Under the pieces are notes generated by a model, which worked only from the letters and a program-made list of their open reading frames with translations, was not told where the DNA came from and did no database searches. The position numbers were made by a program, and so were the translations under genes. From IMG/VR virus record IMGVR_UViG_3300010354_007935, positions 1 to 46,283 of that record: a stretch of 46,283 nt of DNA; one strand, 5' to 3'. Shown one piece after another: positions 1-45,477 of this stretch. Within the stretch, counting starts at the first letter, position 1; every line of letters starts with the position of its first letter. The DNA comes from a virus. Lineage: Duplodnaviria; Heunggongvirae; Uroviricota; Caudoviricetes.

Positions 1-643
1 CAATAATGTGCCCACCGAGGCCATGAGCCGCATCGGCACACTCAATGATTGCACTGAGTTGAGGATACCCAACACCAGTTTGTATACGAGTAGTACATAC
101 ACTCCCAGGACCAATACCAACTTTAACGATATCTGCTCCACGTAAAATTAACTCCTGTGTCATGTCTGCGGTAACAACGTTACCTGCAATAATAGTGCAA
201 TGGGGAAACGTTTCTCTAACTTTTTGAACATAGTCACCAAAGCGTTCTTGGTAACCGTTAGCAACATCAATGCAAACAAAATGTATTTCAGGATATGCAT
301 TTATAGTTTGACGTAATTTTAAAAAATCATTATCACTAGTTCCTGTGCTGACAGCAAAATAATTACCGCCAATATCTTCTACAGTTGTGTCAAAATATTC
401 TATGTTGATATTTTTTACTAAACAGGTAAACATTCTATGCCTGTATAGTGCGTGAGCCATATCAAGTGTACCAACACCGTCCATATTGGATGCCATAATT
501 GGAACGCCAGTCCACTCTGTTTTACTATGTCGAAATTTATAGGTACGATTTAAGTCTACTTCTTTACGACTAGAAAGTGTACTGCGTTTAGGACGAATAA
601 GTACGTCTTTAAAATCTAATTTAATTTCGTCTTCAATTCTCAT
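1..643 (-). CDS. guaC: GMP reductase (runs off the left edge of the window; not in the ORF track)
   Basis: Manual translation from ATG at 643: [31 protein letters not shown]...[14 protein letters not shown]...[46 protein letters not shown]. This matches enterobacterial-type GuaC, including the catalytic Cys loop. ATGA overlap with the upstream PRTase stop. Confidence 0.97.
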
Positions 644-1233
644 TGTTCCCACCATGCTTCATACGGGAATTCAATCCATACGTCGTTTTCAGCTTTGTTT
701 ACTTCCATACCAACAAAGTCCATACCTATTCTACATTTACTAGATAGGTTATCGACAAGGACTGCAAATTTTACATTATTATTCCAAACATGTTCCCAAT
801 CAGGATCATCAGGTAAACAACTTGCTGGCCAGTCATTCATAATCCAATTAAAGGTAGCACCGGTATCGTTAATATCGTCAACCACAAGAATATTTTTGTA
901 ACTGGGCGGCTCGGGCATTTCTAATAGACTCGATGCGGCCTCTAATACTGCACCGATGTCGTTTTCATCGTCAACATGAATTTCTTGTTTAGGATAGCCA
1001 AATGCGTCTTCAGCCATACCGCAGTCACTAACACATTCGCCGCCGTCACGCAGACTAACTTGCAAAGGTTTCATAGGAACATTTAGGTAATGGCTAATCA
1101 TGACAGCAGGCACTAACCCTCCACGGCTAATACCTACAACATAGTCTGGTCTCCAGCCACTATTACCAATATCTCTACAAAGTTTAGCAACTAACTTTTT
1201 TAAGTCTCGATCTTTAAGGATTAGCTTGTTCAT
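640..1233 (-). CDS. Type I phosphoribosyltransferase, Gpt/xanthine-guanine PRTase-like
   Basis: [13 protein letters not shown]-terminal motif and PRPP-binding loop [14 protein letters not shown]; C-terminal WIEFPYE resembles the Gpt WIxFPW motif. Confidence 0.88.
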
Positions 1234-1976
1234 CGTGGTGCAAATTCCTGTTGCATTTTAATATTGTCAAAGAATTCTTTCTTTGTTCCTATATCGTCTT
1301 TAAAAGCACCTTTGAGTACAGTAGTTTGTGTAAGACTACTATGTGCCATAATACCACGATTCTCACAACATCCGTGAGTGGCTTGGATATACACGCCTAA
1401 GTCTTTTGCGCCTGTGGCTTTTTCGATTTCCCTAGCAATGTCATTGCAAAGTTCCTCCTGGAGAGTACCACGTCGGGCGCACCACTGTGCGATGCGGGTG
1501 TACTTGCTGAGACCGATAAGTTTCTGCGCGGCAATAATACCAATATAAGCAACGCCAACAACGGGTTGGTGATGATGGCTACACATACTGCGAAGCTCGC
1601 TGCGAACAACCAGCATACCAGAATAGCGGTCCTCCGAATCATTTGGAAATGCTGTTGCGTCTGGTGCTGGGTCATATCTTCCTGCCATTATTTCGTTAAA
1701 GTACATTTTAGCAAGGCGACGGGCTGTGCCTTTACTATTAGGATCGTTTTCACGATCAATCAGCAACCGATCAAGCACCAGTTCAAATGCTGGTGTAGCT
1801 TCGTCGATAAGTTTTTCTATGTCGCCTTCGTACAAGTAGTCACTGATGTTATCACCTGCCCAAAAGCGTTTGCCTTCGCGTCGCATCTTAAAACGAATGT
1901 GATCTCCTAAGTATGCTTCTGAATATCCACCGTCGCCTGCCATTGCGTCTAGTGCTGTTTCTTTTTTATTGGTCAT
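1230..1976 (-). CDS. folE: GTP cyclohydrolase I (type IA)
   Basis: SMCSHHHQP, GLSKYTRI, LQEE and ATHGCCENRG zinc/catalytic motifs. Start moved to ATG 1976, which follows a GGAGA ribosome-binding site. Confidence 0.96.
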   Translation of the reverse strand: MTNKKETALDAMAGDGGYSEAYLGDHIRFKMRREGKRFWAGDNISDYLYEGDIEKLIDEATPAFELVLDRLLIDRENDPNSKGTARRLAKMYFNEIMAGRYDPAPDATAFPNDSEDRYSGMLVVRSELRSMCSHHHQPVVGVAYIGIIAAQKLIGLSKYTRIAQWCARRGTLQEELCNDIAREIEKATGAKDLGVYIQATHGCCENRGIMAHSSLTQTTVLKGAFKDDIGTKKEFFDNIKMQQEFAPR

Positions 1977-1995
1977 TGTTTCTCCTATCCGTAAC

Positions 1996-2025
1996 ATTAT
2001 ACAGATGTATTTAGGTCCTGGTCAA
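1996..2025 (-). promoter_or_regulatory. Sigma70-like promoter TTGACC-N18-TATAAT with a TAAATA box in the spacer
   Basis: Read directly on the minus strand upstream of the folE RBS; TAAATA at 2008-2013. Confidence 0.7.
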
Positions 2026-2220
2026 GTTTTTAACTCTTTTTCGGCATTCTTCTTTAACTTCTTTCGGAATATCAGGATGCCATTCTGCCATTCCGCAATC
2101 ATAAATTCTAACTTTTTCCTCGGGCATAGGTATTGACGCCAATAAAATTACCCAACCAATCGAAGCAACAATGGCACCTATAATGTATTTCACAATCTCT
2201 CGCTTAACAGGATCCTGCAT
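2011..2220 (-). CDS. Small hypothetical membrane protein
   Basis: One hydrophobic segment (YIIGAIVASIGWVILLASIP); co-oriented with neighbours. Confidence 0.6.
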   Translation of the reverse strand: MQDPVKREIVKYIIGAIVASIGWVILLASIPMPEEKVRIYDCGMAEWHPDIPKEVKEECRKRVKNLTRT

Positions 2221-2447
2221 AATTGTTCGTCTTTTTTAGTTTTAAAATGAAACTCCATGAAATCTTCAAACGGGTGATATATAAATCTATCACCAGGCAA
2301 ACCAAATACTTCAAGTACCATAGCGCAAGTTTCATTCCACCAAAATGTTCCTTGATTGTGCCAATCTACTCTGACACAGTAACTAAACTTGTTTACGGTA
2401 ATTACCTTTTTCGGGGATAACGTGTCTAACTCCTCCTCTTGGATCAT
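2190..2447 (-). CDS. Hypothetical protein
   Basis: 85 aa ORF with GGAGA about 5 nt before the ATG; fills the gap in the operon. Confidence 0.6.
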   Translation of the reverse strand: MIQEEELDTLSPKKVITVNKFSYCVRVDWHNQGTFWWNETCAMVLEVFGLPGDRFIYHPFEDFMEFHFKTKKDEQLCRILLSERL

Positions 2448-2760
2448 CCATATCTCCTTTACGTCGTGGAATCATGTGTATATGTGGATACATTACAGTT
2501 TGCCCTGCCGACTCTCCAACATTTTGACCAATATTAAATCCGTCCCACCGTCCTGACTCTACACCTTCGTAACCAAATTTATATGCGGCTTTAAAACATG
2601 GCCACAAACAACCTGGTTCTAAAGTTGTTGGTACAAATAACAAATGCCCCTCCGTTACCGGATAGGCATCTCGAAAAACCCAATAGTCGTTGCTTCGGAA
2701 TTCAATTTCTTTCCACGGTGCTACTCCGTTATCTAGTGCGTTTATTAGATCGTTCTTCAT
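2383..2760 (-). CDS. HIT family nucleotide hydrolase
   Basis: FRDAYPVTEGHLLFVP, GFNIGQNVGESAGQTVMYPHIHMIPRRKGD. Confidence 0.9.
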   Translation of the reverse strand: MKNDLINALDNGVAPWKEIEFRSNDYWVFRDAYPVTEGHLLFVPTTLEPGCLWPCFKAAYKFGYEGVESGRWDGFNIGQNVGESAGQTVMYPHIHMIPRRKGDMDDPRGGVRHVIPEKGNYRKQV

Positions 2761-2923
2761 CTTTCATTACCTTAATTTCGTCTTGTAAATAGGCCTTATA
2801 TTCGGATAATACTTCTAATTTACGACCAGAATTTTCTCCGCCTTCGAGTAAAAGTTTTTTAATATCATCTTCCACTCGTTTAATTTTGTCTTCAAGATCC
2901 TGAATAGTAATTTCTTCGCTCAT
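2729..2923 (-). CDS. Small coiled-coil hypothetical protein
   Basis: 64 aa charged heptad-like ORF; start overlaps the upstream stop. Confidence 0.6.
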   Translation of the reverse strand: MSEEITIQDLEDKIKRVEDDIKKLLLEGGENSGRKLEVLSEYKAYLQDEIKVMKDEERSNKRTR

Positions 2924-3156
2924 ACGGTTAATCCATATGCAAGGGCTTGCAGTTCTTCTTTAGTCATATTAAAACTATATGTGCTAGTATCTGAAACTTC
3001 TCCTTTATCATTAAGGCTTTCTTGAATCAGATCAATAGCAAATAGTCCTTTGGGATTGATACTTTCCCATTTTTCCATACGCAAGCGAAAGCCATCGCTT
3101 TCTTTAATAATCATTTCTTTTGCTGTACTAGCAACATCAGGGTGTAAGTTTCTCAT
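2920..3156 (-). CDS. Hypothetical protein
   Basis: 78 aa ORF with 4-bp overlaps at both ends. Confidence 0.65.
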   Translation of the reverse strand: MRNLHPDVASTAKEMIIKESDGFRLRMEKWESINPKGLFAIDLIQESLNDKGEVSDTSTYSFNMTKEELQALAYGLTV

Positions 3157-3404
3157 TGTAGGTTCCTTTTGTGGTCTTCGTTGTTGAAAAAATTGTCAAG
3201 TTTTTCTAAAACTTCATCTGACAGTTCTTCGATGTCATCTTCGCTAAGTGGTCGGCTTCGAGCTTCGAGCTCTTCTGGAGTAAGTTCAGTAAACATAGTT
3301 GTAATTTCTTTGACGAACTCATCTAGTTCTTCTTGACTACCTTCGAAGTTATCGAAACATCCGGGTACAAATTCAATTTTAAGAGGTTTCTTTTCATCAG
3401 TCAT
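3153..3404 (-). CDS. Acidic hypothetical protein
   Basis: 83 aa, D/E-rich, tightly packed in the operon. Confidence 0.65.
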   Translation of the reverse strand: MTDEKKPLKIEFVPGCFDNFEGSQEELDEFVKEITTMFTELTPEELEARSRPLSEDDIEELSDEVLEKLDNFFNNEDHKRNLQ

Positions 3405-3405
3405 T

Positions 3406-3801
3406 TTATTCGCCTTTTAATGATTCCCACATACGAGCCTTGCTTAATTCTTTAATGTATTCATCGTACATTTTTTTAAGTTTAGGATGCTTAGCCTCTA
3501 GTTTAACATCTCTTTCGGGAATTTGCAAGACCTGTTCAATTGTGTTTAACCGTTCTTCTAAGTCTCGACCGTTTATAACCACGTTTCCTTTGACTTCGAG
3601 AGAAGCATTTTTTTCCAGGATAACTTTTTCTTCACCGTGCGGAATTGTCAAAATAGCATTTTGATTTGAACTAACAAAGTTTGTACTAGAGTTAACCCAA
3701 CTTGTACCATTTGTTCCGCTTGCGGTCAGGAACTGCCCGGCAGTTCCGGAATAGTTAATTTTGTAATTTGGCGGATTTCCGGTATTCAAAGTATTTGCCA
3801 T
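3406..3801 (-). CDS. Hypothetical protein
   Basis: 131 aa; S/T/G-rich N-terminus (GTAGQFLTASGTNGTSW) and helical C-terminus. Confidence 0.65.
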   Translation of the reverse strand: MANTLNTGNPPNYKINYSGTAGQFLTASGTNGTSWVNSSTNFVSSNQNAILTIPHGEEKVILEKNASLEVKGNVVINGRDLEERLNTIEQVLQIPERDVKLEAKHPKLKKMYDEYIKELSKARMWESLKGE

Positions 3802-4243
3802 TTTCCATCCATTTGTTCTTTACGAGAAATCCCCATTCTCGTTTGTGCGGCCCAGGCATAAACAATGTCCAACATTCGATACCTTCGGCTAGTTCTATTC
3901 TATGATAGCTGTTAGCAGAGCAAGTGCGAAAATGACCCGGGCCTCTCCAATGACACATCTCAGCAATTTTCCCCCCGTTTTTATCAAATACAGGAACCCA
4001 CTCGTAATACCCGCCTTTAAGTATTAGTGTAGCATATGGCCAAGGATGATCATGAACATCGTCGGGGTCAGATTTTAAAAACTTGTGTAAAAACACGTTA
4101 AATGGAAACCATGACCTGTCTTTAAGAAAAACATAGTATCTTTCCAAATAAGGTTCATTTTCGAGTCTGTCCATAATAACACGTTTACGTCCGCGTCGTT
4201 CCATAAATTCAAAGAACTTATTTTTTAGTGTTTGGATTATCAT
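3755..4243 (-). CDS. Cupin-fold (RmlC-like) metal-binding protein
   Basis: DDVHDHPWPYATLILKGGYYE (motif 1: HxH...E) and SYHRIEL (motif 2 His). Confidence 0.75.
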   Translation of the reverse strand: MIIQTLKNKFFEFMERRGRKRVIMDRLENEPYLERYYVFLKDRSWFPFNVFLHKFLKSDPDDVHDHPWPYATLILKGGYYEWVPVFDKNGGKIAEMCHWRGPGHFRTCSANSYHRIELAEGIECWTLFMPGPHKREWGFLVKNKWMENGKYFEYRKSAKLQN

Positions 4244-4664
4244 AATCGTCCTTCACAAGATAATACGTAGTTTTAAATTTTTCAAATGCAATTTTAAGAC
4301 CTGGATATACTTCACACATTTTTTGTACTCGACTCCAATCAGGAAAATGATGTTTCCATTCGGAGTTCATAATGCTCTCCAAATTAGATATATCAAATGT
4401 GCTTATAGTTGCAGTTCCACTAGTAGTAGAGATAGTAGCATATCCACCAGCTCCGCCAATAGTTGAAATACCACTTGTACCAACAGCACCAATTGAATAA
4501 ACAGGAGAACTGGTTAGACCGGTAATTGTTATTGTGTCTGACGCAGATAGTCCACTACTCAAATTGATAGAACTAAAATCTATAGTATCAGCAGATGATC
4601 CTATAGTAATAGTATCAATTTGCGATTGTGTTAAGTAACCCGGTTGCTGAGAAAAAGTGCTCAT
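4218..4664 (-). CDS. Hypothetical protein with S/T/G-rich N-terminus
   Basis: 148 aa; low-complexity N-terminal part, C-terminal FPDWSRVQKMCEVYPGLKIAFEKF. Confidence 0.65.
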   Translation of the reverse strand: MSTFSQQPGYLTQSQIDTITIGSSADTIDFSSINLSSGLSASDTITITGLTSSPVYSIGAVGTSGISTIGGAGGYATISTTSGTATISTFDISNLESIMNSEWKHHFPDWSRVQKMCEVYPGLKIAFEKFKTTYYLVKDDYDNPNTKK

Positions 4665-5691
4665 GTAAAGACTCCGTTTGTTGTTTAAGCTGTGGAAGTC
4701 TCGATTCGTAATAGTCCATATGACTCATTATTGCTCTGCATAAATCAGGTCTATAAACATTATAAGCATCCCAGCTTTCTGTCCATTTGCTTTGATATTT
4801 AAAAATATTAAAATACATCTCTGTGTAACTGAGTCTATCAGGAACCATAGGAATAGCGTCTACTACTGCGCCTTCGTAACAACTAATGCCTAAAGTTTCT
4901 TGTAGGTTGGCAGAAAAAACTAACTTGGCCTCGCCTAACAACGTGTGATATTCATGTTTTGTTAATTTTTGATCCTGACACACTACAAATTCATATTGTG
5001 GTAAGTGTGTAGCTAAGTCTCGAAAGATCTCAACTTGCTTCTCTGGAGCGATCCTATGAGGGAAAAGGATCAAGTCACGTTTCTTCATGCCTTTATATGG
5101 TGCCAATGTATCTAGCATATATTCCATTGGCCAGCCTGTGCGTACAATTTTACCATCTTTTATATATGAAAGTTTTGCTGTTTCAAAATCTATACCTAAT
5201 AGATTATGACAAAACATTTCAATATGAAAGTCTGTGGCAAAATAGTTATGGTCGATAGCATGAAAGAAACTTTTTTCAGCATAACGTACCCACGGAGCGT
5301 TGCCAATAAGGCGTCCTAAAAAGTCTTGAGGATCATAGCTACCAGCATGCCATAGTGCGTGAATAGTTACAGGTATCTGTAACAGTTCACTCATATATTT
5401 TAAGTTTATGATACCAGGATGCCAAGCATCAGTAAACAAAAAATGATCGCCAGGCTTAACTGCTCCGGATGTAAATAAGCGACTAAATTCCTCAACTTGA
5501 CGAGACTTGTATATATTAGTCCCGCCAAAATTGAGAAAGGCACCAGGAGTAGTGGCACTAGGAATATCTTCAGGACCAGAGATAACTTGAATCTCATGTC
5601 CTGCCCTTTTAAAAATTTTGGGTACATGTTCTTTCCATTGTGCAGTATATCGAGTTTCAACTGCTTCTAAGTCTACAACATAAACGGTCAT
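4615..5691 (-). CDS. GT-B fold glycosyltransferase (GT4-like, retaining)
   Basis: ILFPHRIAPEKQ and VFSANLQETLGISCYEG (E-X7-E motif) in the C-terminal Rossmann domain; 358 aa. Confidence 0.8.
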   Translation of the reverse strand: MTVYVVDLEAVETRYTAQWKEHVPKIFKRAGHEIQVISGPEDIPSATTPGAFLNFGGTNIYKSRQVEEFSRLFTSGAVKPGDHFLFTDAWHPGIINLKYMSELLQIPVTIHALWHAGSYDPQDFLGRLIGNAPWVRYAEKSFFHAIDHNYFATDFHIEMFCHNLLGIDFETAKLSYIKDGKIVRTGWPMEYMLDTLAPYKGMKKRDLILFPHRIAPEKQVEIFRDLATHLPQYEFVVCQDQKLTKHEYHTLLGEAKLVFSANLQETLGISCYEGAVVDAIPMVPDRLSYTEMYFNIFKYQSKWTESWDAYNVYRPDLCRAIMSHMDYYESRLPQLKQQTESLHEHFFSATGLLNTIAN

Positions 5692-5945
5692 TGTACATAC
5701 GACCTATTATTACCGCTACGGTTATATTCCCCACGAGGCTTACGTGTATTATCCCAAGCCTTCTTTGGCTTTAGACTTTTTTCGTAGTTGCGCCATACCC
5801 AACTTGCTCTGTTATAAAGATCAGCTTCGTTAAACGGAGCCATTTCCATGCAACAAAAGTTGCGGAATGATTCCAAATCGTCAAAGATTTTGACAATATC
5901 CGGACGTTCACTGAAATAAGAAATTTCTTTATAATTTTTAGCCAT
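5688..5945 (-). CDS. Hypothetical protein
   Basis: 85 aa ORF with an AAGGAAAG RBS; overlaps the glycosyltransferase start. Confidence 0.65.
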   Translation of the reverse strand: MAKNYKEISYFSERPDIVKIFDDLESFRNFCCMEMAPFNEADLYNRASWVWRNYEKSLKPKKAWDNTRKPRGEYNRSGNNRSYVQ

Positions 5946-5959
5946 TATAGCTTTCCTTT

Positions 5960-6355
5960 TTAATACTTAATAAATGAACCATTTTCTCCGTCTTCGGAGA
6001 CCTCAATCCAAACTTCACGGTCTGGATACCTTGCATGAATCTGAGCGTATAAATCATCACTCATCATCTCGCAACTTTTATAATCTAACGACAATACACC
6101 TTCGTTGCTAGAATACAGTTTTTCGAGCCATCGCTTGAATTGTATAAATTCCACATCTCGGTCATTGTGGGTAACACTAAGATAAACCCTAAAATGAAAG
6201 ATATGGCGATGAGGATGGCCCAAGAACGAAACGTCATATTCGTCTCCAGTAGCTAAGTTGGGGTCAGTTAATGCCGCTGGGTATTTGTGAATACCTTCCT
6301 TACGAAATGTGACCCAAATCATTTTGTTAGGACGGATGTCTTGCTTAATAATCAT
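5960..6355 (-). CDS. queD: QueD-like / 6-pyruvoyl-tetrahydropterin synthase-like T-fold protein
   Basis: EGIHKY, GHPHRHIFHFRV, SCEM and VSEDGENG align by eye to the QueD His triad, T/SxEN and VxE motifs. Start set at ATG 6355 (ATGA overlap). folE and TGT-like genes are in the same cluster. Confidence 0.68.
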   Translation of the reverse strand: MIIKQDIRPNKMIWVTFRKEGIHKYPAALTDPNLATGDEYDVSFLGHPHRHIFHFRVYLSVTHNDRDVEFIQFKRWLEKLYSSNEGVLSLDYKSCEMMSDDLYAQIHARYPDREVWIEVSEDGENGSFIKY

Positions 6356-6885
6356 GTTGGAGTATCCTGTGTATATTGATCCCAATAAGTGTATTTGTCT
6401 TTACTCATCAGGCTTGGAAGATGATGTGTCCAAACACCGGGATTGGTAGCACCCCAAGTGCGGTCATCGATTTTAAGTGTTGCATTGTAATTGTAAAGTT
6501 TAATGTAAGGCAACTTTACACTAATCATAGGAATAAATCTATCATGCTCGGTCCATCCATCTTCATGGATTTCTTCGGCATATTTTACATCAAAGTCTAA
6601 CGTAACCCAATAGCCGGCTTTAAGACAACCCATAATGCGGTCGTCCCAAGTTTTCCATTCTTCATAAGTGCTAGGATTAAAACTTTGGCTAGTACCAAAA
6701 TAAATTTGTTTGATTCGTTTAGACTCGTCTAGCATGGACTGTGTTTCATCTGCCTTACGCAGAATTTCTTCTAGAGGAGGAGTACCTACTACAAATAATG
6801 TGTACATTCCATAGGCAATCGTGTGTTCTACTTCGTAGCCTGTGAAGTATACAATACCTTGCCGTTCTTCTGTATTCAATCCCAT
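6352..6885 (-). CDS. Hypothetical protein adjacent to the QueD-like gene
   Basis: Start set at ATG 6885 (MGLNTEERQG), overlapping the upstream stop; 177 aa alpha/beta pattern. Confidence 0.75.
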   Translation of the reverse strand: MGLNTEERQGIVYFTGYEVEHTIAYGMYTLFVVGTPPLEEILRKADETQSMLDESKRIKQIYFGTSQSFNPSTYEEWKTWDDRIMGCLKAGYWVTLDFDVKYAEEIHEDGWTEHDRFIPMISVKLPYIKLYNYNATLKIDDRTWGATNPGVWTHHLPSLMSKDKYTYWDQYTQDTPT

Positions 6886-7772
6886 TTGATATAACCTCTG
6901 CTGTAGCCTTCTGGACGATCTGCACCATCCGCAAATGCTTGTTGCCAATTTGTATCACGATTGTAGCTTCTTGTCCAGAAAGAATCAACCTCTAGATAAC
7001 CGTTTTCAATCCAATGTTTGGCAAAGTGCATACAATTAATAAATTCGGGATGTCTTGGACTTGGAAAAACCATAGTGCAGGCTTTCCAAAGTAGTTTTGA
7101 AAAATCTGTAGTTACAGTTTTTTGAGCACCAAAAATTACTAACGCATTTTCTCTCAAAATATCTTTATCAAAAACATCTGTTTTATTACTTAAATCGATA
7201 ACAACATCGTAGTTTGCCTCAGTTTTTTCTTGTAATATATCTCCCCAGAGGTCTTTATTATTAGATCCTACAACATCTACTTGATAAAAATAACCGTTGA
7301 GTCGCATAGTATGATACGCAACCCATGCTAAAAAACCACTACCTAAGATTAACATACGAGAATGTACACCTTGACGTTCTTCAATAAGTCGTTGCGTCTG
7401 GTTTATAAGGTTAATGCCGCATGCTACTGGTTCAAGTATGTATTTAGGAGTTGCTTCTGGTACTACAACAAATTCGTTTTTACGGACATTATAGTAATCT
7501 GCATAAGCAGGTTCTCCTCTGGTAGCAACAAAATCTCCAATTTTAACATCTTTTGTATTGCTTCCGACCTGGACTACTTGACCGAGGCCCTCGTGACCTT
7601 GCATATAGATAGGCAATGGACCAAAGGTTCCTTGCATCATATCGATATCGCTACGGCATACTCCAGTCATAATGGATTTAACAACAATTTCGTCGGGTGT
7701 ATGTTCAGGTTTTTCCCAACCACCTTCACTAAAGGTGCCTGTACCAGTAGTCATTAAAATTCTTGTACGCAT
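6876..7772 (-). CDS. MDR-superfamily (Zn alcohol dehydrogenase-like) oxidoreductase
   Basis: TGVCRSD and GHEGLGQVVQVG catalytic Zn motifs; ILGSGFLA NAD-binding loop; no structural-Zn Cys loop. Confidence 0.88.
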   Translation of the reverse strand: MRTRILMTTGTGTFSEGGWEKPEHTPDEIVVKSIMTGVCRSDIDMMQGTFGPLPIYMQGHEGLGQVVQVGSNTKDVKIGDFVATRGEPAYADYYNVRKNEFVVVPEATPKYILEPVACGINLINQTQRLIEERQGVHSRMLILGSGFLAWVAYHTMRLNGYFYQVDVVGSNNKDLWGDILQEKTEANYDVVIDLSNKTDVFDKDILRENALVIFGAQKTVTTDFSKLLWKACTMVFPSPRHPEFINCMHFAKHWIENGYLEVDSFWTRSYNRDTNWQQAFADGADRPEGYSRGYIKWD

Positions 7773-8641
7773 AATTTTCCTAATTGTTTATGTATCCATA
7801 AATCTTGCTCGTATTGGTTAATCCAAAATTCGTTGTTATTTAGGTTTTTAACAGCAGTCTCGATCATTTTTTTATAAGCCGATTCGGGGCACAAACCTAA
7901 TGTATGTTTTATTGCGCTACTATCTGAACTAAAGCTAATATAAACATCATCGGATTTATCGTCTTTCCAATTAGCACTTAGAATCCATTTTGTAGTTCCG
8001 CTGTAGTATTCTAATTCTGCAAAGTCGTCAACATTGTATGTTCCGTTAGGATTTATATTTCCATAATCGGTGCTACTAATGTCTTTTAGTTTATGTCGCT
8101 GTATTGCTGAAGCAAATATTCGCGTTCCTGTTTTGTAATTTGTTAAGCAGGTATAGTAACTTAGCATATGAGGCATTAGATCTCTACTAACTCCTCCGAA
8201 TGCTAATTCTCGTGTAGTGAACCAACTACCGGGGTGGGGAATACGATTTTTATTATTCCATATAACATGTACACGTTTACTACTGTCTGCTAGTCTTTGA
8301 AATTCTGCTATTTCGGGTCTATATTGATTATTCTTAACCATCATAAATCGTGTATTAGGATAATCTTCTACAAGACATTGCCAGCATTTAGCATCGACTA
8401 CGCCTGGTTTTTCAACTAGTACAATTTTACATTTATTAGCAATAGTACGAGCAATTAACTCGTGTGTATAGTTAGGAGTACAAATCACTGCAATGTCGTA
8501 ATTGTCAGTAATTTCGTCTGCTGATCGAAACGTTGCATTTTTTTCAACACTAGGATCGACAGTATCGATATCAAATCCTAAACTTTTAAAAACACTTTGG
8601 TATAGATTGCCTATACCCATGCCTATGATAAGACTACGCAT
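7754..8641 (-). CDS. Gfo/Idh/MocA family NAD-dependent oxidoreductase
   Basis: LIIGMGIG Rossmann loop, AVICTPNYTH, VLVEKP, GGVSRDLMPHML. Confidence 0.88.
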   Translation of the reverse strand: MRSLIIGMGIGNLYQSVFKSLGFDIDTVDPSVEKNATFRSADEITDNYDIAVICTPNYTHELIARTIANKCKIVLVEKPGVVDAKCWQCLVEDYPNTRFMMVKNNQYRPEIAEFQRLADSSKRVHVIWNNKNRIPHPGSWFTTRELAFGGVSRDLMPHMLSYYTCLTNYKTGTRIFASAIQRHKLKDISSTDYGNINPNGTYNVDDFAELEYYSGTTKWILSANWKDDKSDDVYISFSSDSSAIKHTLGLCPESAYKKMIETAVKNLNNNEFWINQYEQDLWIHKQLGKLCVQEF

Positions 8642-8882
8642 TTTTGTTTTCTTTTGATTGTTCGTATTGTTTAAATAATCTTGTTACCGGTTCCATGCGT
8701 TCAGCAAAGATGTCTGGACTGGCTTCGGCAGCACGTTGCATATCCCATTCACTAGGATAGTGTCTAAGACACCACCTAGCATTGTCTTTAACGGACTTAG
8801 GTATGCGAGGAGTAGTAAGAAGCTCTTCAAGAAACTTCTTAGTTTGTACTACTGCTCGATACCGTTCGTCAGGTAGCGTCAT
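8634..8882 (-). CDS. Small conserved protein (resembles BPSL0761 family)
   Basis: MTLPDERYRAV...PRIPKSVKDNARWCLRHYP; start set at ATG 8882. Confidence 0.65.
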   Translation of the reverse strand: MTLPDERYRAVVQTKKFLEELLTTPRIPKSVKDNARWCLRHYPSEWDMQRAAEASPDIFAERMEPVTRLFKQYEQSKENKNA

Positions 8883-10419
8883 GACCCAATTCCAATTCAT
8901 CTAGTTTATCAATTTCGTCTTCGGTAAACTCACCGTCGTCATTGGATTGTACAGTCTCTGTCTCTACTTCGTCAAAGAATTCGAAATACTTAGTACTCGA
9001 GTTGACAGTTTTCTTACCAATTGCACCTCGTGTACCAGGAATAGCCATCCAAAAACGACTAAAGTCCTCGATGATTTCGTCACTTTCTGCTTTACTGCTG
9101 GTAGCAAAAATAGCTTCAACTACATCTTTAAAGTAAACTCTATTGATGTTTTCTTGTACTAGCATATTTGGACACAACCCAGCATCATACTGACGGTTAG
9201 CTTCTTGTACGCTATTCAAATGTTGCCAAACATTATGGCCCATCATAATAGCATAACTAAAACTATCCCATGAAGTTTTACCTTCTTTGCCAATCTTATT
9301 TAGATCACCGGGGTTATAAATGCAAATGTCCTTGACTGGAACACCATCCATAACAGGACTAGTAGTAAAAGACTTAAAGTGACCATCTTGTACTACTGCA
9401 TCTTGGAAGAGTCTTGTGTCTTGGGCATACTTTTTGTCATCAATAGACGGCAACATGCGGTAGAGCCATTTTTGCCTATCTGCGATTTCTGTCTGGACGT
9501 AGATTTGTCCGTTTGCAGTTGCGAGGAACGGTGAGGCGCAGTCAAAAGAGATGGTAAAGTTTTCATTATGATATTTCCTTACAGCACGTTGAATGTCTGT
9601 GAGCAATAATGCCCACTCCAGTTTACTAGTTCCTAGAAAGTGCATCCAATCTTGTTTGCCTTTTTCTAGGAGACCATCATGACGAAGTGCAACAATACGT
9701 TTTAATGTAAGATGCACATCGCACATGTTCTGACCACCCATAGCCCAACCATTAAAATGGTTGCTATACTGCTTAGGGTCGCAATACTGTTTCATACGTT
9801 GATACCAGTCTTCGGCATCAGTATGATTTTCACCTTGTAAAACATTTAAGAACTTGCAATTACCGTTGCGATTTTTAATAAAGTAATCATTATTAATATA
9901 AGTTCCTTGCACCGCTTCTGCGTAAGTGCTAATACCAGTAGCTTTTTGACCAGCAGGACTACGAGCAACCCACGCAGGAATATCAAGAATCATGCCGTAG
10001 TCCATTAGACTATCCATCCAGGTTAATACCTGAGCACGTTTTTTAGCAGCCTTAGGACAATTAGGATCTTTCCAATCACCTTCCCATTTGCCTTTACCGA
10101 TTTGAAATCCACCAGAGTCGCCTAACACCCAACTTGTTCCGCGATTACGTTTACGGAACATGTCTTCACTATCGTCTTGTTTGTTAAGATCTAAATTAGC
10201 ATGTCCTGCACTATATAAACAATGGTCATAGTAGAATAGACCTTTATCAGGATCTAAAAAATTTAGACTCTCTACTCCGTTAGTAAAAGTTTTAGGCACA
10301 CGGTTAGGATCTACGTAATTTCCATAACGCTGTTTTCCGATAAATGTGCTATAAAAACCGGAAACAGCCGGAAGAAAATATGCGTAGTCGTTTTGTGCGG
10401 CTGTTAAATTACGATTCAT
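8869..10419 (-). CDS. TGT-superfamily guanine transglycosylase (DpdA-like)
   Basis: VLGDSGGFQ, MILDIP, VLQG, GWAMGG, HFLG and SFDCASP occur in the same order as TGT base-exchange motifs; no CxCxxC zinc site. Confidence 0.8.
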   Translation of the reverse strand: MNRNLTAAQNDYAYFLPAVSGFYSTFIGKQRYGNYVDPNRVPKTFTNGVESLNFLDPDKGLFYYDHCLYSAGHANLDLNKQDDSEDMFRKRNRGTSWVLGDSGGFQIGKGKWEGDWKDPNCPKAAKKRAQVLTWMDSLMDYGMILDIPAWVARSPAGQKATGISTYAEAVQGTYINNDYFIKNRNGNCKFLNVLQGENHTDAEDWYQRMKQYCDPKQYSNHFNGWAMGGQNMCDVHLTLKRIVALRHDGLLEKGKQDWMHFLGTSKLEWALLLTDIQRAVRKYHNENFTISFDCASPFLATANGQIYVQTEIADRQKWLYRMLPSIDDKKYAQDTRLFQDAVVQDGHFKSFTTSPVMDGVPVKDICIYNPGDLNKIGKEGKTSWDSFSYAIMMGHNVWQHLNSVQEANRQYDAGLCPNMLVQENINRVYFKDVVEAIFATSSKAESDEIIEDFSRFWMAIPGTRGAIGKKTVNSSTKYFEFFDEVETETVQSNDDGEFTEDEIDKLDELELGHDAT

Positions 10420-11368
10420 TATTAGATTTTTTCTTTAAATAAAAGCTACCTACAAATATAGCTAACATTGTAGCTAAAGTCACTATTGTTGGTACAATTA
10501 GAGGAAGATTTTTACTCATAAAGTAAAAATAATTTACTGCGTTCATAGCCAAAACAGTCCATAGCATTGTTTTCTTGTTGACCCATCCTAGTAAAATATT
10601 ACCAAAAGGTGCAAAGAACAATACTACAGGTGCTGCCGCCAGCCACATATGATAAACTTCTGGTTGTACAGCATCGAGTACTAGTCCTCTATAGGCAATT
10701 CCAAAAACAGTGACAACAGCCATTAAAACAATACTAATATCAGTACTGATTTTTTCCTTCATACCGTAGTAACATGTAAGTGCAATATAAATTAACATAT
10801 CGGATCCTGTACCAAACATAGCACTAGCACATCCTCCAATAAACGACCAAACACTAAAACTAAGTAGTCGTTCTTTACTATCAATATCTACCCGATCTTC
10901 GTTACCGTTGCCGCGTGTGAACAAGTATGCTAAAATAAACGATAGTGCCAAGCTAACAAATAACATTTGAGTTACCTTGAAAGCAACTAAATGATATATG
11001 CTAGACATAAAAATAAATCCAGCAAAATTGACTAGTGCATAAAATGGAACCCATTTAAAAGTTGATAGGCTATGACCTTTCCTGGTTAAAATCCAAATAG
11101 CTGCTGATACCATGCCAATACTTTGAATAGCTAGGCTAAAGTCTCTAGCAGCCATTGGGGTAATTTTAAAATATAAACTTAGTATTGGAAAAGCAACTGC
11201 TCCACCGCCTTCGGGAGTAAATCCTGCAATAGCAGATCCGAAAATCATCATTATTGCGTAGAGCCAGTGTGTATCATATAATGCAAAGCCCGGCCCAGTT
11301 AAAATTAAGTATAACCAAGTGATCAATACTGCGCTTGCCCATATAGGCCAAATTAGTTGTTTAATCAT
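10409..11368 (-). CDS. TauE/SafE (TSUP) family membrane transporter
   Basis: About 9-10 hydrophobic segments; AGFTPEGGGAVAFP and SAMFGTGSD repeat-domain motifs. Confidence 0.8.
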   Translation of the reverse strand: MIKQLIWPIWASAVLITWLYLILTGPGFALYDTHWLYAIMMIFGSAIAGFTPEGGGAVAFPILSLYFKITPMAARDFSLAIQSIGMVSAAIWILTRKGHSLSTFKWVPFYALVNFAGFIFMSSIYHLVAFKVTQMLFVSLALSFILAYLFTRGNGNEDRVDIDSKERLLSFSVWSFIGGCASAMFGTGSDMLIYIALTCYYGMKEKISTDISIVLMAVVTVFGIAYRGLVLDAVQPEVYHMWLAAAPVVLFFAPFGNILLGWVNKKTMLWTVLAMNAVNYFYFMSKNLPLIVPTIVTLATMLAIFVGSFYLKKKSNNES

Positions 11369-11570
11369 TCTTGAGACCCCATTTAATTTTTAACCATAGC
11401 CTTTCATGAATGTAGTAATCGATACTTAAAAGAATATGTAATGCGGTTGCAAATCCTGTTGCATTGCCGATATCTCCCGTGAACAAATATGTCCACAGGA
11501 TCGTAAATAACCATGCGGTTATTCTATATGTTACCATACGGGTAACAGTTCTCTTTTTAGTTTCTATCAT
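11361..11570 (-). CDS. DUF2061-like small membrane protein
   Basis: ETKKRTVTRMVTYRITA...YYIHERLWLKIKWG. Confidence 0.78.
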   Translation of the reverse strand: MIETKKRTVTRMVTYRITAWLFTILWTYLFTGDIGNATGFATALHILLSIDYYIHERLWLKIKWGLKND

Positions 11571-12298
11571 TTGCTCTGTGCAGGTAAAATGTAATCGTAC
11601 TCTGCAAGTCCGCTATCGACAGTAATCATCATAGCACCTGCATCGGCAATCTTAATGGTCTTATCACCCGCTAAGTTAAGAATACTCATAACTTGAACAA
11701 CAGGCCATGCCCATGCTTGCTTTAGTTTACCAGTAACGCCTGCTTGGAAAACAAACTCGCCTGCGTGTGTGCTTGCATCGCCAAAGCTGAATACCAAATT
11801 ACCGTTGTCTGTTTTAACTTGAAAAACGGGTTCTTCGCTATGTGCGTTTGCTTGGAATTTTAGTTTTTGAATACTAGTAACTGTGGGTTCAAATTCAATG
11901 TTCCAGGTAGCACCTTTAAACTTAACTGATTTAAGTTTTTCATTAATAATTTCTGTACTCATAAAACGATAATCGTTTTCAAAGTCGCCTGCTTCATTTT
12001 CAAAGTGAAGTCCTGTTGGAATATCTTCACCGTTGCGGTTAGCAATACTTACACTAATCTTAGCTTTTTCTTTGTACTCTGGACATTTCAAATGAATGTC
12101 TAGTTTATTTAGGTTTGGCATACCAAAGACACCTTCAAATTCTTGAACTGGTGTTTTAGTTTTAGCACTAATAATAACACTACGGTCCTCTGCCATAGAC
12201 TCGATTAGTGTTTCTTTATCGTCAGCTGTGATTTTTACCAACGGAATAAATCCTAGTGCATGAGTGTGTGCTACTAGGTCTTGTAAAATGTCTTTCAT
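11567..12298 (-). CDS. Putative sliding clamp (gp45/PCNA-like)
   Basis: 243 aa, two-lobed alpha/beta pattern, ends in YDYILPA; near polB, with a clamp loader elsewhere in the window. Start follows GGAGA. Confidence 0.6.
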   Translation of the reverse strand: MKDILQDLVAHTHALGFIPLVKITADDKETLIESMAEDRSVIISAKTKTPVQEFEGVFGMPNLNKLDIHLKCPEYKEKAKISVSIANRNGEDIPTGLHFENEAGDFENDYRFMSTEIINEKLKSVKFKGATWNIEFEPTVTSIQKLKFQANAHSEEPVFQVKTDNGNLVFSFGDASTHAGEFVFQAGVTGKLKQAWAWPVVQVMSILNLAGDKTIKIADAGAMMITVDSGLAEYDYILPAQSK

Positions 12299-12318
12299 AT
12301 GAATCTCCATGTTTAATG

Positions 12319-12347
12319 ATTATATTTAGGTTTTTGACAAAAGTCAA
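12319..12347 (-). promoter_or_regulatory. Sigma70-like promoter TTGACT-N17-TATAAT with overlapping TAAATA
   Basis: Near-consensus boxes; TAAATA at 12323-12328; TTGAC-AAAA-GTCAA inverted repeat at 12334-12347. Confidence 0.82.
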
Positions 12348-13108
12348 CGTATTTTATTATTGTATTCAACCGATTCTTTTAAAATAGTAAGCGGTTTATT
12401 TAGGCCATAACTGTATTTTATAAATGCAGTTGTATCTTTAGGGAAACAATGTCCACCCCATCCTCGTTCACCGTCTGGTCCAGGAACCATAGTATGGTCT
12501 GTACCAATGCGAGTATCATGGCCTAAAATTTGTCGTACGACATTAAAATCTGCGCCATTTGTTTCGCACATGTCGTAAATTTGATTAAAGAAGCTAGTTT
12601 TAACTGCTAAGAAACTGTTAGCAGTATATTTGATAATACTAGCTTCTAAATTTGTACAACCAAAGTAAAGTCTGCATTTAGGCAATGCTGGTGTAAAGAG
12701 GTCTTGCCAGAAACATTCAGGATCTTCCCCACCGATAATCATAAACGTTTGATTGGCAAAATCTTGCTCTGCTGTTCTTGCTCTTAGAAATTCTGGACTG
12801 TAAACAATGCTATGGTCGGGATATTTGCTATCTAATTCAGAAACAACATCTGGACTAACTGTACTTTTAATTAATACAGGTATATGAATAGGGCATTGAT
12901 CTAAAATGTTAGTGACTTGACTAGCATCGCATTGCCCATCAGCAGTACTTGGTGTTCCGACACAAATAATAATACCGTCTGCATCTATGTGATTTGTAAT
13001 GGTATTAGTATTAAATTTAGGATCGACAATTTCTATAGAATAGTGTTTTTTAAGATTGTTGGCAACTGCCTTACCAACAAATCCGTAACCGGCGATGATA
13101 ATTTTCAT
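12344..13108 (-). CDS. UDP-glucose/GDP-mannose 6-dehydrogenase family (no C-terminal domain)
   Basis: IAGYGFVG, ICVGTP, LIKSTV, YSPEFL, IKYTANSFLA, GWGGHCFPKD (catalytic Cys). Confidence 0.9.
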   Translation of the reverse strand: MKIIIAGYGFVGKAVANNLKKHYSIEIVDPKFNTNTITNHIDADGIIICVGTPSTADGQCDASQVTNILDQCPIHIPVLIKSTVSPDVVSELDSKYPDHSIVYSPEFLRARTAEQDFANQTFMIIGGEDPECFWQDLFTPALPKCRLYFGCTNLEASIIKYTANSFLAVKTSFFNQIYDMCETNGADFNVVRQILGHDTRIGTDHTMVPGPDGERGWGGHCFPKDTTAFIKYSYGLNKPLTILKESVEYNNKIR

Positions 13109-15774: not shown

Positions 15775-15785
15775 ATTTTCTCCTA

Positions 15786-15835
15786 TGCAATTTACGGCTT
15801 GCAAATACCAATTTGTTCATTTATGGCTGAACAAA
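15786..15835 (-). promoter_or_regulatory. Twin hairpins in the polB 5' leader (candidate translational operator)
   Basis: mRNA: UUUGUUCA-GCCAUAAA-UGAACAAA and UGCAA-GCCGUAAA-UUGCA, followed by U and then AGGAGA; the two 8-nt loops differ at one position. Confidence 0.65.
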
Positions 15836-15839
15836 CCTT

Positions 15840-15868
15840 ATTGTACAATATTTATTATAATTAATCAA
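15840..15868 (-). promoter_or_regulatory. Sigma70-like promoter TTGATT-N17-TACAAT with TAAATA in the spacer
   Basis: Upstream of polB; TAAATA at 15849-15854. Confidence 0.7.
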
Positions 15869-15869
15869 C

Positions 15870-17029: not shown

Positions 17030-17055
17030 AAAAATGACTCCTAAGTTAAAAACTA

Positions 17056-17084: not shown

Positions 17085-17097
17085 GTGTTAGGAAGTT

Positions 17098-45018: not shown

Positions 45019-45477
45019 ATGAATATACACGCAGATAAAGAGTTTTGGACTACATTAAAATGGCCTGCTGCACCCAATGAGGACGATTTTCGTGTATTTG
45101 CAAAATATTGTACAGGGCGTGTATTATTGCTTGGTAGTACTAAGCTTCTGCTTCCTCTGGCAACAGAAGCTTGGGATTTAGATCCTAAATATGACGATCC
45201 TAAAATTAAAAACAAGGATTGGTTTTCCCTAAACGAGCATTGGGATACAATAATAATTGATGGCGGCTTGGCATTTGGTAAAGAATTTACAGAGCGTGTT
45301 CTTAATGTAGTTATTCCTAATTGTAATTGCTTTGTAGCTCGTGCTTTTCTAAACCCTAACTGGCCTACAAAATATGCGGTGTACTTTCCTCGTGCCGAAG
45401 AACTAACACCGCAGCCTGAAGAACACCCTATTAACGAAGTTTACACATTTTTCATATGGAACAACAAACAATCTTAG
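45019..45477 (+). CDS. Hypothetical protein, possibly Rossmann/methyltransferase-like fold
   Basis: RVLLLGST...WDLDP...WDTIIIDGG pattern; canonical motif I Gly residues incomplete. Confidence 0.6.
   Translation: MNIHADKEFWTTLKWPAAPNEDDFRVFAKYCTGRVLLLGSTKLLLPLATEAWDLDPKYDDPKIKNKDWFSLNEHWDTIIIDGGLAFGKEFTERVLNVVIPNCNCFVARAFLNPNWPTKYAVYFPRAEELTPQPEEHPINEVYTFFIWNNKQS

Follow-up and report, generated by a model that had tools for sequence, protein, structure and literature searches.

A probable DpdL-type 7-deazaguanine DNA-modification module with a linked GT4 glycosyltransferase in an uncultured jumbo phage

The closest described system is that of Cellulophaga phage phiST, which encodes FolE, QueD, QueE, DpdL and DpdA3 and carries 2'-deoxy-7-deazaguanosine (dDG) in its DNA (Cui, Hutinet et al., NAR 2023, PMC10516641). 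Its DpdL is a proposed 7-carboxy-7-deazaguanine (CDG) decarboxylase whose activity was not reconstituted, and a glycosyltransferase is never mentioned in the main text of that paper (PMC10516641). DNA of the Pseudomonas jumbo phage PA5oct (Wroclawvirus) contains a modified G of uncharacterised structure, resists restriction enzymes acting at G sites, and is susceptible to attack from nucleases that detect hypermodified G (PMC12191111). Sugar transfer onto bases is known from two other settings. QTMAN (GTDC1) and QTGAL attach a hexose to a derivative of 7-deazaguanine that is already part of a nucleic acid, namely queuosine in animal tRNA, at its cyclopentenediol hydroxyls; QTMAN is an existing precedent for a GT4-type enzyme that glycosylates 7-deazaguanine in tRNA. 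Phage DNA glycosyltransferases, such as the T4 alpha- and beta-glucosyltransferases, are GT-B enzymes that act on a modified DNA base after replication, with hydroxymethyl- or hydroxy-pyrimidines as acceptors. Our literature search turned up no account of DNA containing a glycosylated deazaguanine, as the original prediction had supposed.

We analysed a window of 46,283 nt from an uncultured jumbo phage, the first 13.1 kb of which had been predicted to encode a new hypermodification system, coupling 7-deazaguanine base exchange to sugar activation and transfer. All ORFs between positions 1 and 15804 lie on the minus strand (as do all features below unless stated), and form the tightly overlapping run that had been described: most overlap, by 4-65 nt, and the only four gaps are short (1, 13, 14 and 33 nt). 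The run is embedded in the replication region, flanked by PolB/clamp on one side and RNase H on the other, with the family B DNA polymerase (13105..15804; PF00136 and PF03104) marking the replication module that houses it. The sliding-clamp-like gene (11567..12310; phrog_12062) was found in 80/80 related loci, and its product is 34% identical to that of a Phosso gene annotated as sliding clamp beta. Families were confirmed with Pfam or NCBIfam models, which bore out the FolE, purine PRTase, GuaC, HIT, MDR and Gfo/Idh/MocA assignments; further matches came from PHROG families, and three key proteins with no Pfam match, among them the 'QueD-like' ORF at 5960-6385, were resolved otherwise. The gene order recurs in PA5oct (EST35_0311-0325), where PolB and clamp genes are followed by a DpdA-like enzyme (36% identity), GT4 (44%), DpdL (55%), a PRT-like gene, QueE and RNase H. 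PA5oct differs in being a cultured Pseudomonas phage, its genes are annotated as hypothetical, and the stretch lacks MDR/Gfo, UGDH-like, cupin, HIT, TauE and GuaC genes.

The putative base-exchange enzyme is a large, divergent, DpdA-like TGT-fold protein of 516 aa (8869..10419). It shares the DSGG(F/Y)Q, specificity-Asp and FDC nucleophile motifs of bacterial and eukaryotic TGT (PF01702), here as DSGGFQ, a D-x-P specificity Asp, NVLQG and FDC with D293, all invariant or nearly so across 57 sequences, down to 26% identity. Unlike those enzymes, it falls under all Pfam and NCBIfam thresholds, lacks the zinc-binding CxCxxC...H subdomain and carries about 100 extra C-terminal residues ending in a disordered acidic tail, and its genomic context points to a DNA substrate. 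The phiST transglycosylase likewise goes undetected by Pfam, but at 259 aa is half as long and only weakly comparable (hhalign 56%). In a bacterial island, distant members of the TGT-fold family are encoded next to QueD, QueE and QueC. The predicted QueD-like protein (5960..6385; true start likely the ATG at 6355) is indeed a QueD/PTPS paralogue, more precisely the already named DpdL: it has the LxxxHRHxF motif as defined in PMC10516641 (L55-x3-H59-R-H61-x-F63), with 33% identity to phiST CGPG_00067 and 55% to the PA5oct and ACP17 proteins, and 13 lineages share these invariant residues. The proposed product of DpdL, 7-deazaguanine, offers no obvious hydroxyl acceptor for a sugar.

Precursor and purine-pool genes lie at the left end of the run. 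FolE (1230..1997; PF01227 at 1e-37, NF006824 at 125 bits) catalyses the first step towards 7-deazaguanines. It is followed by an XGPRT/HGPRT-like purine PRTase (640..1233; PF00156 at 43 bits), which has a 13-residue PRPP motif and also matches xanthine and hypoxanthine PRT models and purine PRTs in the PDB, and by a GuaC-type GMP reductase (2..655; PF00478 at 8.8e-40, NF003470 at 327 bits), cut by the contig start to its N-terminal 218 aa and retaining the 11-residue catalytic loop. QueE is not on this contig, but it follows GuaC in 5/5 relatives searched (in L021/G002 the order is FolE, PRT, GuaC, MazG-like, QueE) and therefore probably lies just beyond the contig start; QueD is encoded elsewhere on the same contig (65153-65566). 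The five relatives have no QueC. As in phiST, then, FolE, QueD, QueE and DpdL are combined without a conserved QueC at a site adjoining polymerase genes, with a MazG-like gene nearby in relatives. Base exchange as originally proposed is supported by the catalytic motifs of the TGT-fold enzyme together with this gene set, and the region very probably encodes a DpdL-type deazaguanine DNA system. This half of the proposal is of a known kind, since DpdL had already been named. What phiST lacks is a GT4 enzyme and an o198-family protein built into the module, along with the added PRTase, GuaC, HIT, oxidoreductase and short sugar-dehydrogenase-like genes.

The GT4-type (retaining) GT-B glycosyltransferase (4615..5691) is a conserved partner of DpdL. 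The original prediction had named its linkage in relatives beforehand as a point on which it could fail, and the linkage persisted in 31/31 long loci from relatives as well as in six lineages of cultured phages (PA5oct, ACP17, Phosso, X1/BUDD, BCSR5 and BUCT-ZZ01). In these six, GT4 and DpdL are less than 4 kb apart, and GT4 abuts DpdL or sits between DpdA and DpdL while other neighbours differ and the partner DpdA belongs to different subfamilies. Both families co-occur in 18 phage records, whereas with 23 and 28 matches among 50,697 records chance alone would give ~0.013, and almost all detectable GT4 homologues of cultured phages are in DpdL contexts. The GT4 model has a computed pI of 6.0, near neutral. 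Among the 50 solved-structure entries listed, its closest relatives act on small molecules (such as malate, inositol phosphate and sugars), which, like the pI, counts against the sugar step, and the T4-type and other phage DNA glycosyltransferases are absent. Among the GT4-type fold matches QTMAN ranks 17th (TM 0.57), a similarity no greater than the shared fold, and the gene set here cannot make the queuosine side chain.

From these folds, motifs, homologies and the conserved linkage, we infer a pathway with DNA as its substrate, 7-deazaguanine as its base and a sugar as a putative addition. FolE, QueD and the expected QueE would convert GTP to CDG, which DpdL would convert, reportedly to 7-deazaguanine, and the 516-aa TGT-fold enzyme would swap guanine in phage DNA for this base. 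The dedicated GT4, as part of the same pathway, would most likely put a hexose on the deazaguanine product, acting either on the free base or after insertion, with the o198 protein as a possible further member. PRTase and GuaC (with the MazG-like protein in relatives and HIT in some) may handle the purine pool, salvaging guanine released by base exchange and lowering G nucleotides. A sugar on the base is plausible but tentative, and the phage DNA may thus carry a sugar-bearing purine; taken as a whole, sugar step included, the reading of the first 13.1 kb as a QueC-less, DpdL-type 7-deazaguanine DNA-modification module falls a little short of probable.

A possible, if doubtful, account is that the DNA contains plain dDG (or dCDG), as in phiST, and that GT4 and the sugar-type enzymes serve another role; these enzymes might glycosylate some small metabolite, a protein of the phage or the host, or a host glycan, or act in counter-defence unrelated to the base. 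Indeed, phiST makes plain dDG with DpdL and no such GT4, six DpdL lineages lack this GT4, and the sugar-nucleotide enzymes are variable, points that count against the sugar step. Because DpdL has the same active-site residues whether or not a lineage carries GT4, GT4 is not paired with a visibly different DpdL. The small-molecule enzymes closest to GT4 in structure would also fit, as would the variable or generic nature of the MDR/Gfo, dehydrogenase, cupin and HIT genes and the Ser/Thr/Gly-rich N-terminal halves encoded by the neighbouring ORFs 4218-4664 and 3406-3801. However, compact GT4 modules such as those of ACP17 and X1 contain no Ser/Thr-rich ORF, and the near-exclusive DpdL contexts and constant placement of GT4 beside DpdL amid changing neighbours speak against an unrelated role. 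In addition, the acceptor-side domain of GT4 hardly varies between phages whose hosts are very different and unrelated, which argues against a host-specific glycan as acceptor.

Modification at the nucleotide level is improbable. Tubercidin-type gene sets (TubC/F/B/E/D, ToyD/B/C/H/E) lack QueC and consist of FolE, QueD and QueE along with a PRTase and a homologue of GMP reductase, and the set found here resembles them. In this reading the PRTase would join CDG or deazaguanine to PRPP, GuaC, MazG-like and HIT proteins would reshape the pool, and PolB would incorporate the deaza-nucleotide, or the nucleotide would be an antimetabolite, leaving the TGT-fold enzyme secondary. The PRT does lie within the module in this clade, PA5oct and BUCT-ZZ01, and a MazG-like gene adjoins QueE in relatives and another adjoins DpdL in phiST. 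But ACP17, Phosso, X1 and BCSR5 have neither PRT nor GuaC in their modules, and the GuaC found here scores as a normal housekeeping enzyme would. Downstream of the module there is no gene for adenylosuccinate synthetase or lyase. Conservation of the TGT-fold gene is high, at 74-95% identity in the 80 related loci and the 120 database matches listed, and all known cases are argued to be post-replicative (Cui et al., PMC10516641). It is very unlikely that the TGT-fold enzyme acts on phage or host tRNA: its solved structural relatives are all tRNA enzymes, but it lacks the zinc subdomain, its gene sits among replication genes, PA5oct, with a homologue, has restriction-resistant G in its DNA, and phage DpdA3 proteins too escape the Pfam TGT model. 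Least credible of all is a glycosylated pterin of the biopterin-glucoside type made by FolE, the PTPS-like T-fold enzyme, reductases and GT4 as glucosyltransferase, since, although the phage does encode FolE, a PTPS paralogue and a pair of oxidoreductases, the oxidoreductases are optional, the catalytic Cys position of PTPS/QueD is missing from DpdL, the constant partners QueE and TGT-fold enzyme have no role in pterin glycosides, and the GT4 structure match counted in its favour is mid-list among generic GT4 enzymes.

The predicted sugar activation did not hold as a conserved part of the module. The Zn-dependent alcohol-dehydrogenase-like MDR (6876..7772; ADH_N, PF08240 at 4.2e-12) and the Gfo/Idh/MocA oxidoreductase (7754..8641; PF01408 at 8.3e-7) occur together in 16/31 long loci, with matching presence and absence, and are two halves of an optional cassette. 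The UDP-glucose/GDP-mannose-dehydrogenase-family gene (12344..13108; PF00984 and PF03721) does adjoin PolB as stated, but its position varies among relatives, and its 254-aa product covers TIGR03026 positions 67-295 of 413, retaining GGHCFPKD and lacking the C-terminal UDP-binding domain; in every homologue the frame is open over 260-289 aa. The HIT-family nucleotide hydrolase or transferase (2383..2760; PF01230 at 33.9 bits) is accessory, present in 18/31 long loci. The cupin-like protein of the phage 'cysteine dioxygenase' family (3755..4243), called from its match to PHROG 4786 (phrog_4786 at 4.5e-37) and an HxH motif only, has homologues in 103 phage records, mostly of unrelated phages without this module, and is probably a passenger.

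The o198-family protein (6352..6948; start likely at 6885), present in 31/31 long loci and without a Pfam, PDB or Atlas match, is a module member of no known fold; its homologue ACP17 gp122 directly precedes ACP17 DpdA (tblastn 1.8e-15). An 85-aa protein between DpdL and GT4 (5688..5945; 31/31 long loci) and an 88-aa protein directly after the DpdA-like gene (8634..8900; 24/31) are found at these positions in the related loci and match no family in Pfam or PHROG searches. A divergent QueC-like PP-loop protein on the plus strand (45456..46046; PF06508 at 30.2 bits, SGGLDS, C-x12-C-x2-C-x2-C) is unmatched in PA5oct and in four contigs of relatives and is accessory, outside the conserved module.

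The promoter predicted before the clamp gene corresponds to an 11/12 consensus match, TTGACT-17-TATAAT (12319..12347), in the 33-nt gap, and a second, TTGACC-18-TATAAT (1996..2025; 11/12), lies in the 13-nt gap before folE; both are sigma-70-like by consensus match only. Terminator-like matches on the minus strand all fall inside ORFs, in agreement with the predicted lack of an obvious terminator, but site totals equal those of shuffled sequences and the picture is suggestive only. The TauE/SafE-family membrane protein gene (10409-11368; PF01925 at 7e-13) is an insertion specific to this genome, matched in 0/80 related loci, and the DUF2061 membrane protein encoded beside it (11361-11570; PF09834) has matches in 18/80.

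The source contig is a fragment of a jumbo-phage genome: a 110-kb linear IMG/VR record (completeness ~25%, CheckV), of which the window forms the first 46 kb and to which no cultured phage gave a close DNA match. Between positions 1 and 15,804 all ORFs lie on the minus strand, and neighbouring ORFs mostly overlap, by 4-65 nt, leaving just four gaps, of 1, 13, 14 and 33 nt. Family models bore out most of the enzymes named in the original prediction: a GMP reductase (GuaC; 2-655; PF00478, and NF003470 at 327 bits) that retains its 11-residue catalytic loop and is truncated at the contig end, an XGPRT/HGPRT-like purine phosphoribosyltransferase (PRT; 640-1233; PF00156, with a 13-residue PRPP motif), FolE (1230-1997), a HIT protein (2383-2760), an MDR dehydrogenase (6876-7772), a Gfo/Idh/MocA oxidoreductase (7754-8641), a member of the UDP-glucose/GDP-mannose-dehydrogenase family (12344-13108; PF03721, PF00984) and PolB (13105-15804), all on the minus strand. 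The sugar dehydrogenase has the NAD-binding and central domains, with a GGHCFPKD motif containing the catalytic Cys, and lacks the C-terminal UDP-binding domain; its TIGR03026 match (139 bits, below the cut-off of 189.8) stops at model position 295 of 413. The protein is a short form of its family, and in related phages, too, every homologue is an open frame of only 260-289 aa. The three proteins most relevant to DNA modification, of 516 aa and 358 aa and the QueD-like protein, had no Pfam, NCBIfam or PDB-sequence match, and searches of PDB sequences with these three, the cupin and the conserved ORF o198 (6352-6948), as proteins or profiles, returned nothing meaningful.

The two best sigma-70-like sites of the region (11/12 each, minus strand) fall into short gaps and precede the clamp gene (12347-12319, in the 33-nt gap) and folE (2025-1996, in the 13-nt gap), and every minus-strand terminator-like match falls inside an ORF. 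Both observations suit the single transcription unit that had been proposed for the cluster; overall site counts, however, are no higher than in shuffled sequence, so that this reading is compatible with the data and not proven by them. A TauE/SafE-family membrane transporter gene (10409-11368, minus strand) lies between the clamp/DUF2061 genes and the gene for the 516-aa protein; since none of 80 related loci contains a match (tblastn), it is a recent insertion found in the source genome alone.

The 516-aa DpdA-like protein (8869-10419) has the TIM-barrel fold of tRNA-guanine transglycosylases (TGTs), and its AlphaFold model (pLDDT 89.2) is confident except in an acidic C-terminal tail. In an alignment of 57 family members, reaching down to 26% identity, residues D101, S102, G104, D146, P148, N192, H260, G263 and D293 are invariant; the motifs that contain them are DSGGFQ, LD-x-P, NVLQG and S-F-D-C. 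Judged by eye, they correspond to the acid/base Asp, substrate Asp, Gln and nucleophile Asp (FDC) of TGTs, the equivalence to TGT D102, D156 and D280 being assigned by motif rather than by residue-level structural alignment. Neither hmmscan nor a genome search matched the protein to PF01702 above the curated threshold. DpdA3 of the Cellulophaga phage phiST and gp123 of phage ACP17 equally lack a Pfam TGT match (hmmscan), so the missing match is normal for phage DpdAs, and PF01702 cannot separate these enzymes, as published ones fail it as well. Profile comparison linked the family to ACP17 gp123 (hhalign probability 96.5%, 176 columns) and weakly to phiST DpdA3 (CGPG_00065; 55.8%, 81 columns). 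The closest cultured relative is EST35_0316 (35.6% identity) of PA5oct, a phage that has been tried against airway infection by Pseudomonas.

The family is very large: more than 7,900 proteins met the E-value cut-off in a set clustered at 90%, and at 50% identity 989 clusters did. One distant member (28% identity) is encoded in a genomic island of a bacterium (MAG contig GCA_943370095.1, positions 5070-17297 of the retrieved locus), whose genes run QueD, QueE, QueC, a 229-aa ORF, the DpdA-like gene, a convergent 555-aa ORF, a 1528-aa NB-ARC protein and an integrase; the island looks like a defence-type deazaguanine system unlike the described dpd cluster. GT4 was absent from the contigs of the distant members looked up, most of which were too short to give context.

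The QueD-like protein of the cluster (5960-6385) resembles CGPG_00067 of phiST (33% identity, 6e-10, tblastn), which the family HMM scores at 6e-20, and shares 41-70% identity with proteins of PA5oct, ACP17, Phosso, X1, BCSR5 and others. CGPG_00067 has been named DpdL, a QueD paralogue in which the CxxxHGH motif is changed to LxxxHRHxF, and was proposed to decarboxylate 7-carboxy-7-deazaguanine (CDG) to 7-deazaguanine (PMC10516641). The corresponding motif, L55-x3-H59-R60-H61-x-F63, is conserved in our alignments, and further invariant residues are common to the window protein and 12 other lineages. The QueD-like protein of the original prediction thus belongs to a family that already has a name. 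Pfam did not match any member examined, and comparing the DpdL profile with the QueD of the same genome gave no significant score (probability 4%); the link between DpdL and QueD accordingly depends on the His motif and on an HHpred result from the literature. In Chryseobacterium phage MA9V-3 (locus 6464-7345) and Vibrio phage Bakedbeans (locus 6212-7363), DpdL forms the C-terminal part of a longer ORF, whose N-terminal part in MA9V-3 carries Cys pairs and appears, by eye, HNH-endonuclease-like. We considered these ORFs as Rosetta-stone fusions and rejected the idea, the N-terminal parts being unrelated to any protein of the module.

Synthesis of CDG from GTP takes FolE, QueD and QueE; for preQ0, QueC is required. 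FolE and the DpdA-like enzyme are encoded in the window and a true QueD/PTPS at 65153-65566 of the contig, while in larger relatives QueE occurred in 5/5 and QueC in 0/5, a pattern to be read with the contig being a fragment and the source genome having one divergent QueC-like accessory gene. A tblastn search with PA5oct QueE found no QueE on the 110-kb contig. In all five larger relatives, a QueE homologue scoring best against QueE models comes directly after GuaC (gene order FolE, PRT, GuaC, MazG-like, QueE, a 153-aa protein, 5'-3' exonuclease), and because the window stops inside GuaC, QueE most likely lies just beyond the contig end. The QueC-like gene encodes a PP-loop protein (45456-46046, plus strand) with an SGGLDS motif and a Cys4 ribbon (C-x12-C-x2-C-x2-C); neither PA5oct nor any of the four related contigs compared had a match to it, and we rejected it as a member of the module. 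It adjoins tail-fibre genes on the opposite strand and shows weak similarity to QueC-like genes of actinophages.

The 358-aa protein (4615-5691) has the two-Rossmann GT-B fold of a GT4 glycosyltransferase and an E-x7-E motif in which E265 and E273 are invariant across 41 sequences. PF00534 matched 16 of these 41 (best 1e-10), the window protein itself giving no match. Between phages that infect Pseudomonas, Sinorhizobium and unidentified aquatic hosts, the N-terminal, acceptor-side domain shows unusually strong conservation; in the protein collection, more than 8,000 members of the family met the E-value cut-off. Two glycosyltransferases, QTMAN (GTDC1) and QTGAL, add sugars to the queuosine of tRNA; QTMAN was among the fold matches of the window glycosyltransferase, at rank 17, and not especially close. 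For o198, no family member matched Pfam and an Atlas search gave no usable match. The cupin was rejected as a sugar-tailoring partner, because its family, seen in 103 phage records that are for the most part unrelated, is a widespread phage passenger. On either side of it lies a small conserved ORF (4218-4664 and 3406-3801, minus strand); both have an N-terminal half of low complexity, rich in Ser, Thr and Gly, and a helical C-terminus that is conserved and, in the latter, matches PA5oct EST35_0319; it is conceivable that they are glycosylation targets.

We compared 31 related IMG/VR loci with enough flanking sequence, all close kin at 74-85% identity. Their gene order is PolB, (dehydrogenase), clamp, DpdA-like, the 88-aa ORF o88 (8634-8900), (Gfo-MDR), o198, DpdL, the 85-aa ORF o85b (5688-5945), GT4, o148, cupin, o131, o78, PRT, (HIT) and folE, where o148, o131 and o78 are further small ORFs. 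GT4, DpdL, o198 and o85b were each present in 31/31. The original prediction had depended on the sugar enzymes staying linked to the dpdA-like gene in relatives; GT4 stayed with the module in every locus and in six distant lineages, but Gfo and MDR occur together in only 16/31 and the dehydrogenase takes one of two alternative positions.

Because the 31 loci are close kin, distant phages provide the stronger evidence for linkage. The module is ordered PolB, clamp, DpdA-like, GT4, DpdL, PRT-like, QueE and RNase H in PA5oct; QueD, FolE, o198-like, DpdA-like, GT4, DpdL and QueE in ACP17; clamp, DpdL, GT4, FolE and QueE in Phosso, with the DpdA-like gene 170 kb off; FolE, GT4, a gene annotated as queuine tRNA-ribosyltransferase, DpdL and QueE in X1; DpdL, GT4, a 446-aa ORF, QueE and FolE in BCSR5; and QueE, XGPRT, QueD, FolE, a second glycosyltransferase, DpdL and GT4 in Synechococcus phage BUCT-ZZ01. 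Family HMMs confirmed the glycosyltransferase and DpdL assignments in these distant phages, and showed that the neighbouring transglycosylase of X1, BCSR5 and BUCT-ZZ01 is of another subfamily. Across the phage collection, the glycosyltransferase occurred in 23 records, DpdL in 28 and both in 18 (~0.013 expected by chance); the 18 represent six lineages, and six further lineages have DpdL without the glycosyltransferase (phiST, MA9V-3, Bakedbeans, Ahp1, D479 and RHph_I1_18). The glycosyltransferase thus accompanies the DpdL module specifically, though not obligatorily. The second glycosyltransferase of BUCT-ZZ01 (locus 5001-6344) is an unrelated GT-B protein with weak PF13692 and PF00534 matches. 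According to the annotation of PA5oct, a homing-endonuclease gene interrupts its DNA polymerase gene (locus 5608-10834); PolB of the window has no such interruption.

Taken as a whole, the region is very probably a deazaguanine DNA-modification system; that the base carries a sugar is a far more tentative proposition. Our working model, offered with that reserve, is that phages with DpdA, DpdL and GT4 (plus o198) replace guanine in their DNA by a glycosylated 7-deazaguanine derivative. DpdL would convert CDG, the TGT-fold enzyme would insert the product into phage DNA, and GT4 would act in the same pathway, probably adding a hexose; o198 may perform a further step, and the PRT and GuaC may handle guanine freed by base exchange, or G-nucleotide pools. 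The phages to which this might apply, again with less than even confidence, are the abundant environmental jumbo-phage clade of the window, PA5oct, ACP17, Phosso, X1, BCSR5 and BUCT-ZZ01.

The chemical weak point of the glycosylation model is that 7-deazaguanine has no hydroxyl, and the conserved DpdL residues are the same in lineages with and without the glycosyltransferase. This leaves three options: another protein (o198?) makes the acceptor group, the sugar is attached to a nitrogen or a carboxyl, or the glycosyltransferase has a different acceptor. A plausible alternative, somewhat on the unlikely side, is that the DNA contains plain 2'-deoxy-7-deazaguanosine (dDG) and the glycosyltransferase has another job. 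The DNA of phiST, a lineage that has DpdL but not this glycosyltransferase, does contain dDG (PMC10516641); dDG was not obtained in E. coli with DpdA and DpdL of ACP17 or phiST, and a possible need for further enzymes was suggested (PMC10516641). An unlikely alternative is a tubercidin/toyocamycin-type route, in which the modified purine would be made at the nucleotide level through the PRT and GuaC. PRT, GuaC and FolE are indeed contiguous, with QueE next in relatives, but four of the module lineages lack the PRT, and a search for toyocamycin-like completion genes among ten ORFs downstream in one relative found no adenylosuccinate synthetase/lyase-type genes. It is very unlikely that the TGT-fold enzyme is directed at tRNA: for all its fold, its sequence contains no CxCxxC...H zinc motif of tRNA TGTs after D293, and its context points to DNA as the substrate, with a position in the replication module, QueD, QueE and QueC beside distant members, and modified G in PA5oct DNA. 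A pterin glycoside as the end product is more improbable still.

The deazaguanine half of the system is of the already known DpdL type; new relative to the literature consulted are the large form of DpdA, the built-in GT4 and o198, and the purine-salvage genes. Our literature search found no report of glycosylated deazaguanine in DNA. To our knowledge, all sugar-bearing DNA bases are pyrimidines, and the 7-deazaguanines found in DNA are all small (cyano, amido, aminomethyl, carboxy, H). If correct, the glycosylation model would give the first sugar-bearing purine in any DNA, and glycosylated deazapurines would add a new class to the known DNA bases; DpdL and/or o198 would have to create the acceptor group, so that simple decarboxylation would not describe the role of DpdL in these phages. 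Such a base would be relevant to restriction, CRISPR and glycosylase-type defences and to the sequencing and cloning of these phages, and its enzymology would be of interest both for a glycosyltransferase acting on a purine analogue and for the real role of DpdL. Contigs carrying these gene families reach 405 kb, and some sequences have Tara-source labels; as the DpdA-like and glycosyltransferase families are very abundant, the modification, whatever its nature, would be common.

Neither a glycosyltransferase nor a PRTase or GMP reductase comes up in the main text of Cui et al. (PMC10516641). For PA5oct, the pattern reported (PMC12191111) suggests modified G in GA and/or GG. END nucleases, which recognise hypermodified bases, restrict the phage as well, and one of them is directed solely at phages with modified G; the study did not solve the structure of the base (PMC12191111). 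With the module present in no fewer than six lineages of cultured phages, the model can be tested directly, and PA5oct already presents an unexplained modified G.

Two further minus-strand genes lie outside the cluster. A 485-aa protein (23212-24669), within a block that had been assigned to injected head proteins, carries at its N-terminus a domain resembling cytidylyltransferases (phrog_3041; PF01467 at threshold) and could be a nucleotide-sugar or nucleotidyl-transfer enzyme. A 756-aa protein (26943-29213) matches phrog_4871 at 1e-249 and is an ATP-dependent protease or AAA+ protein.
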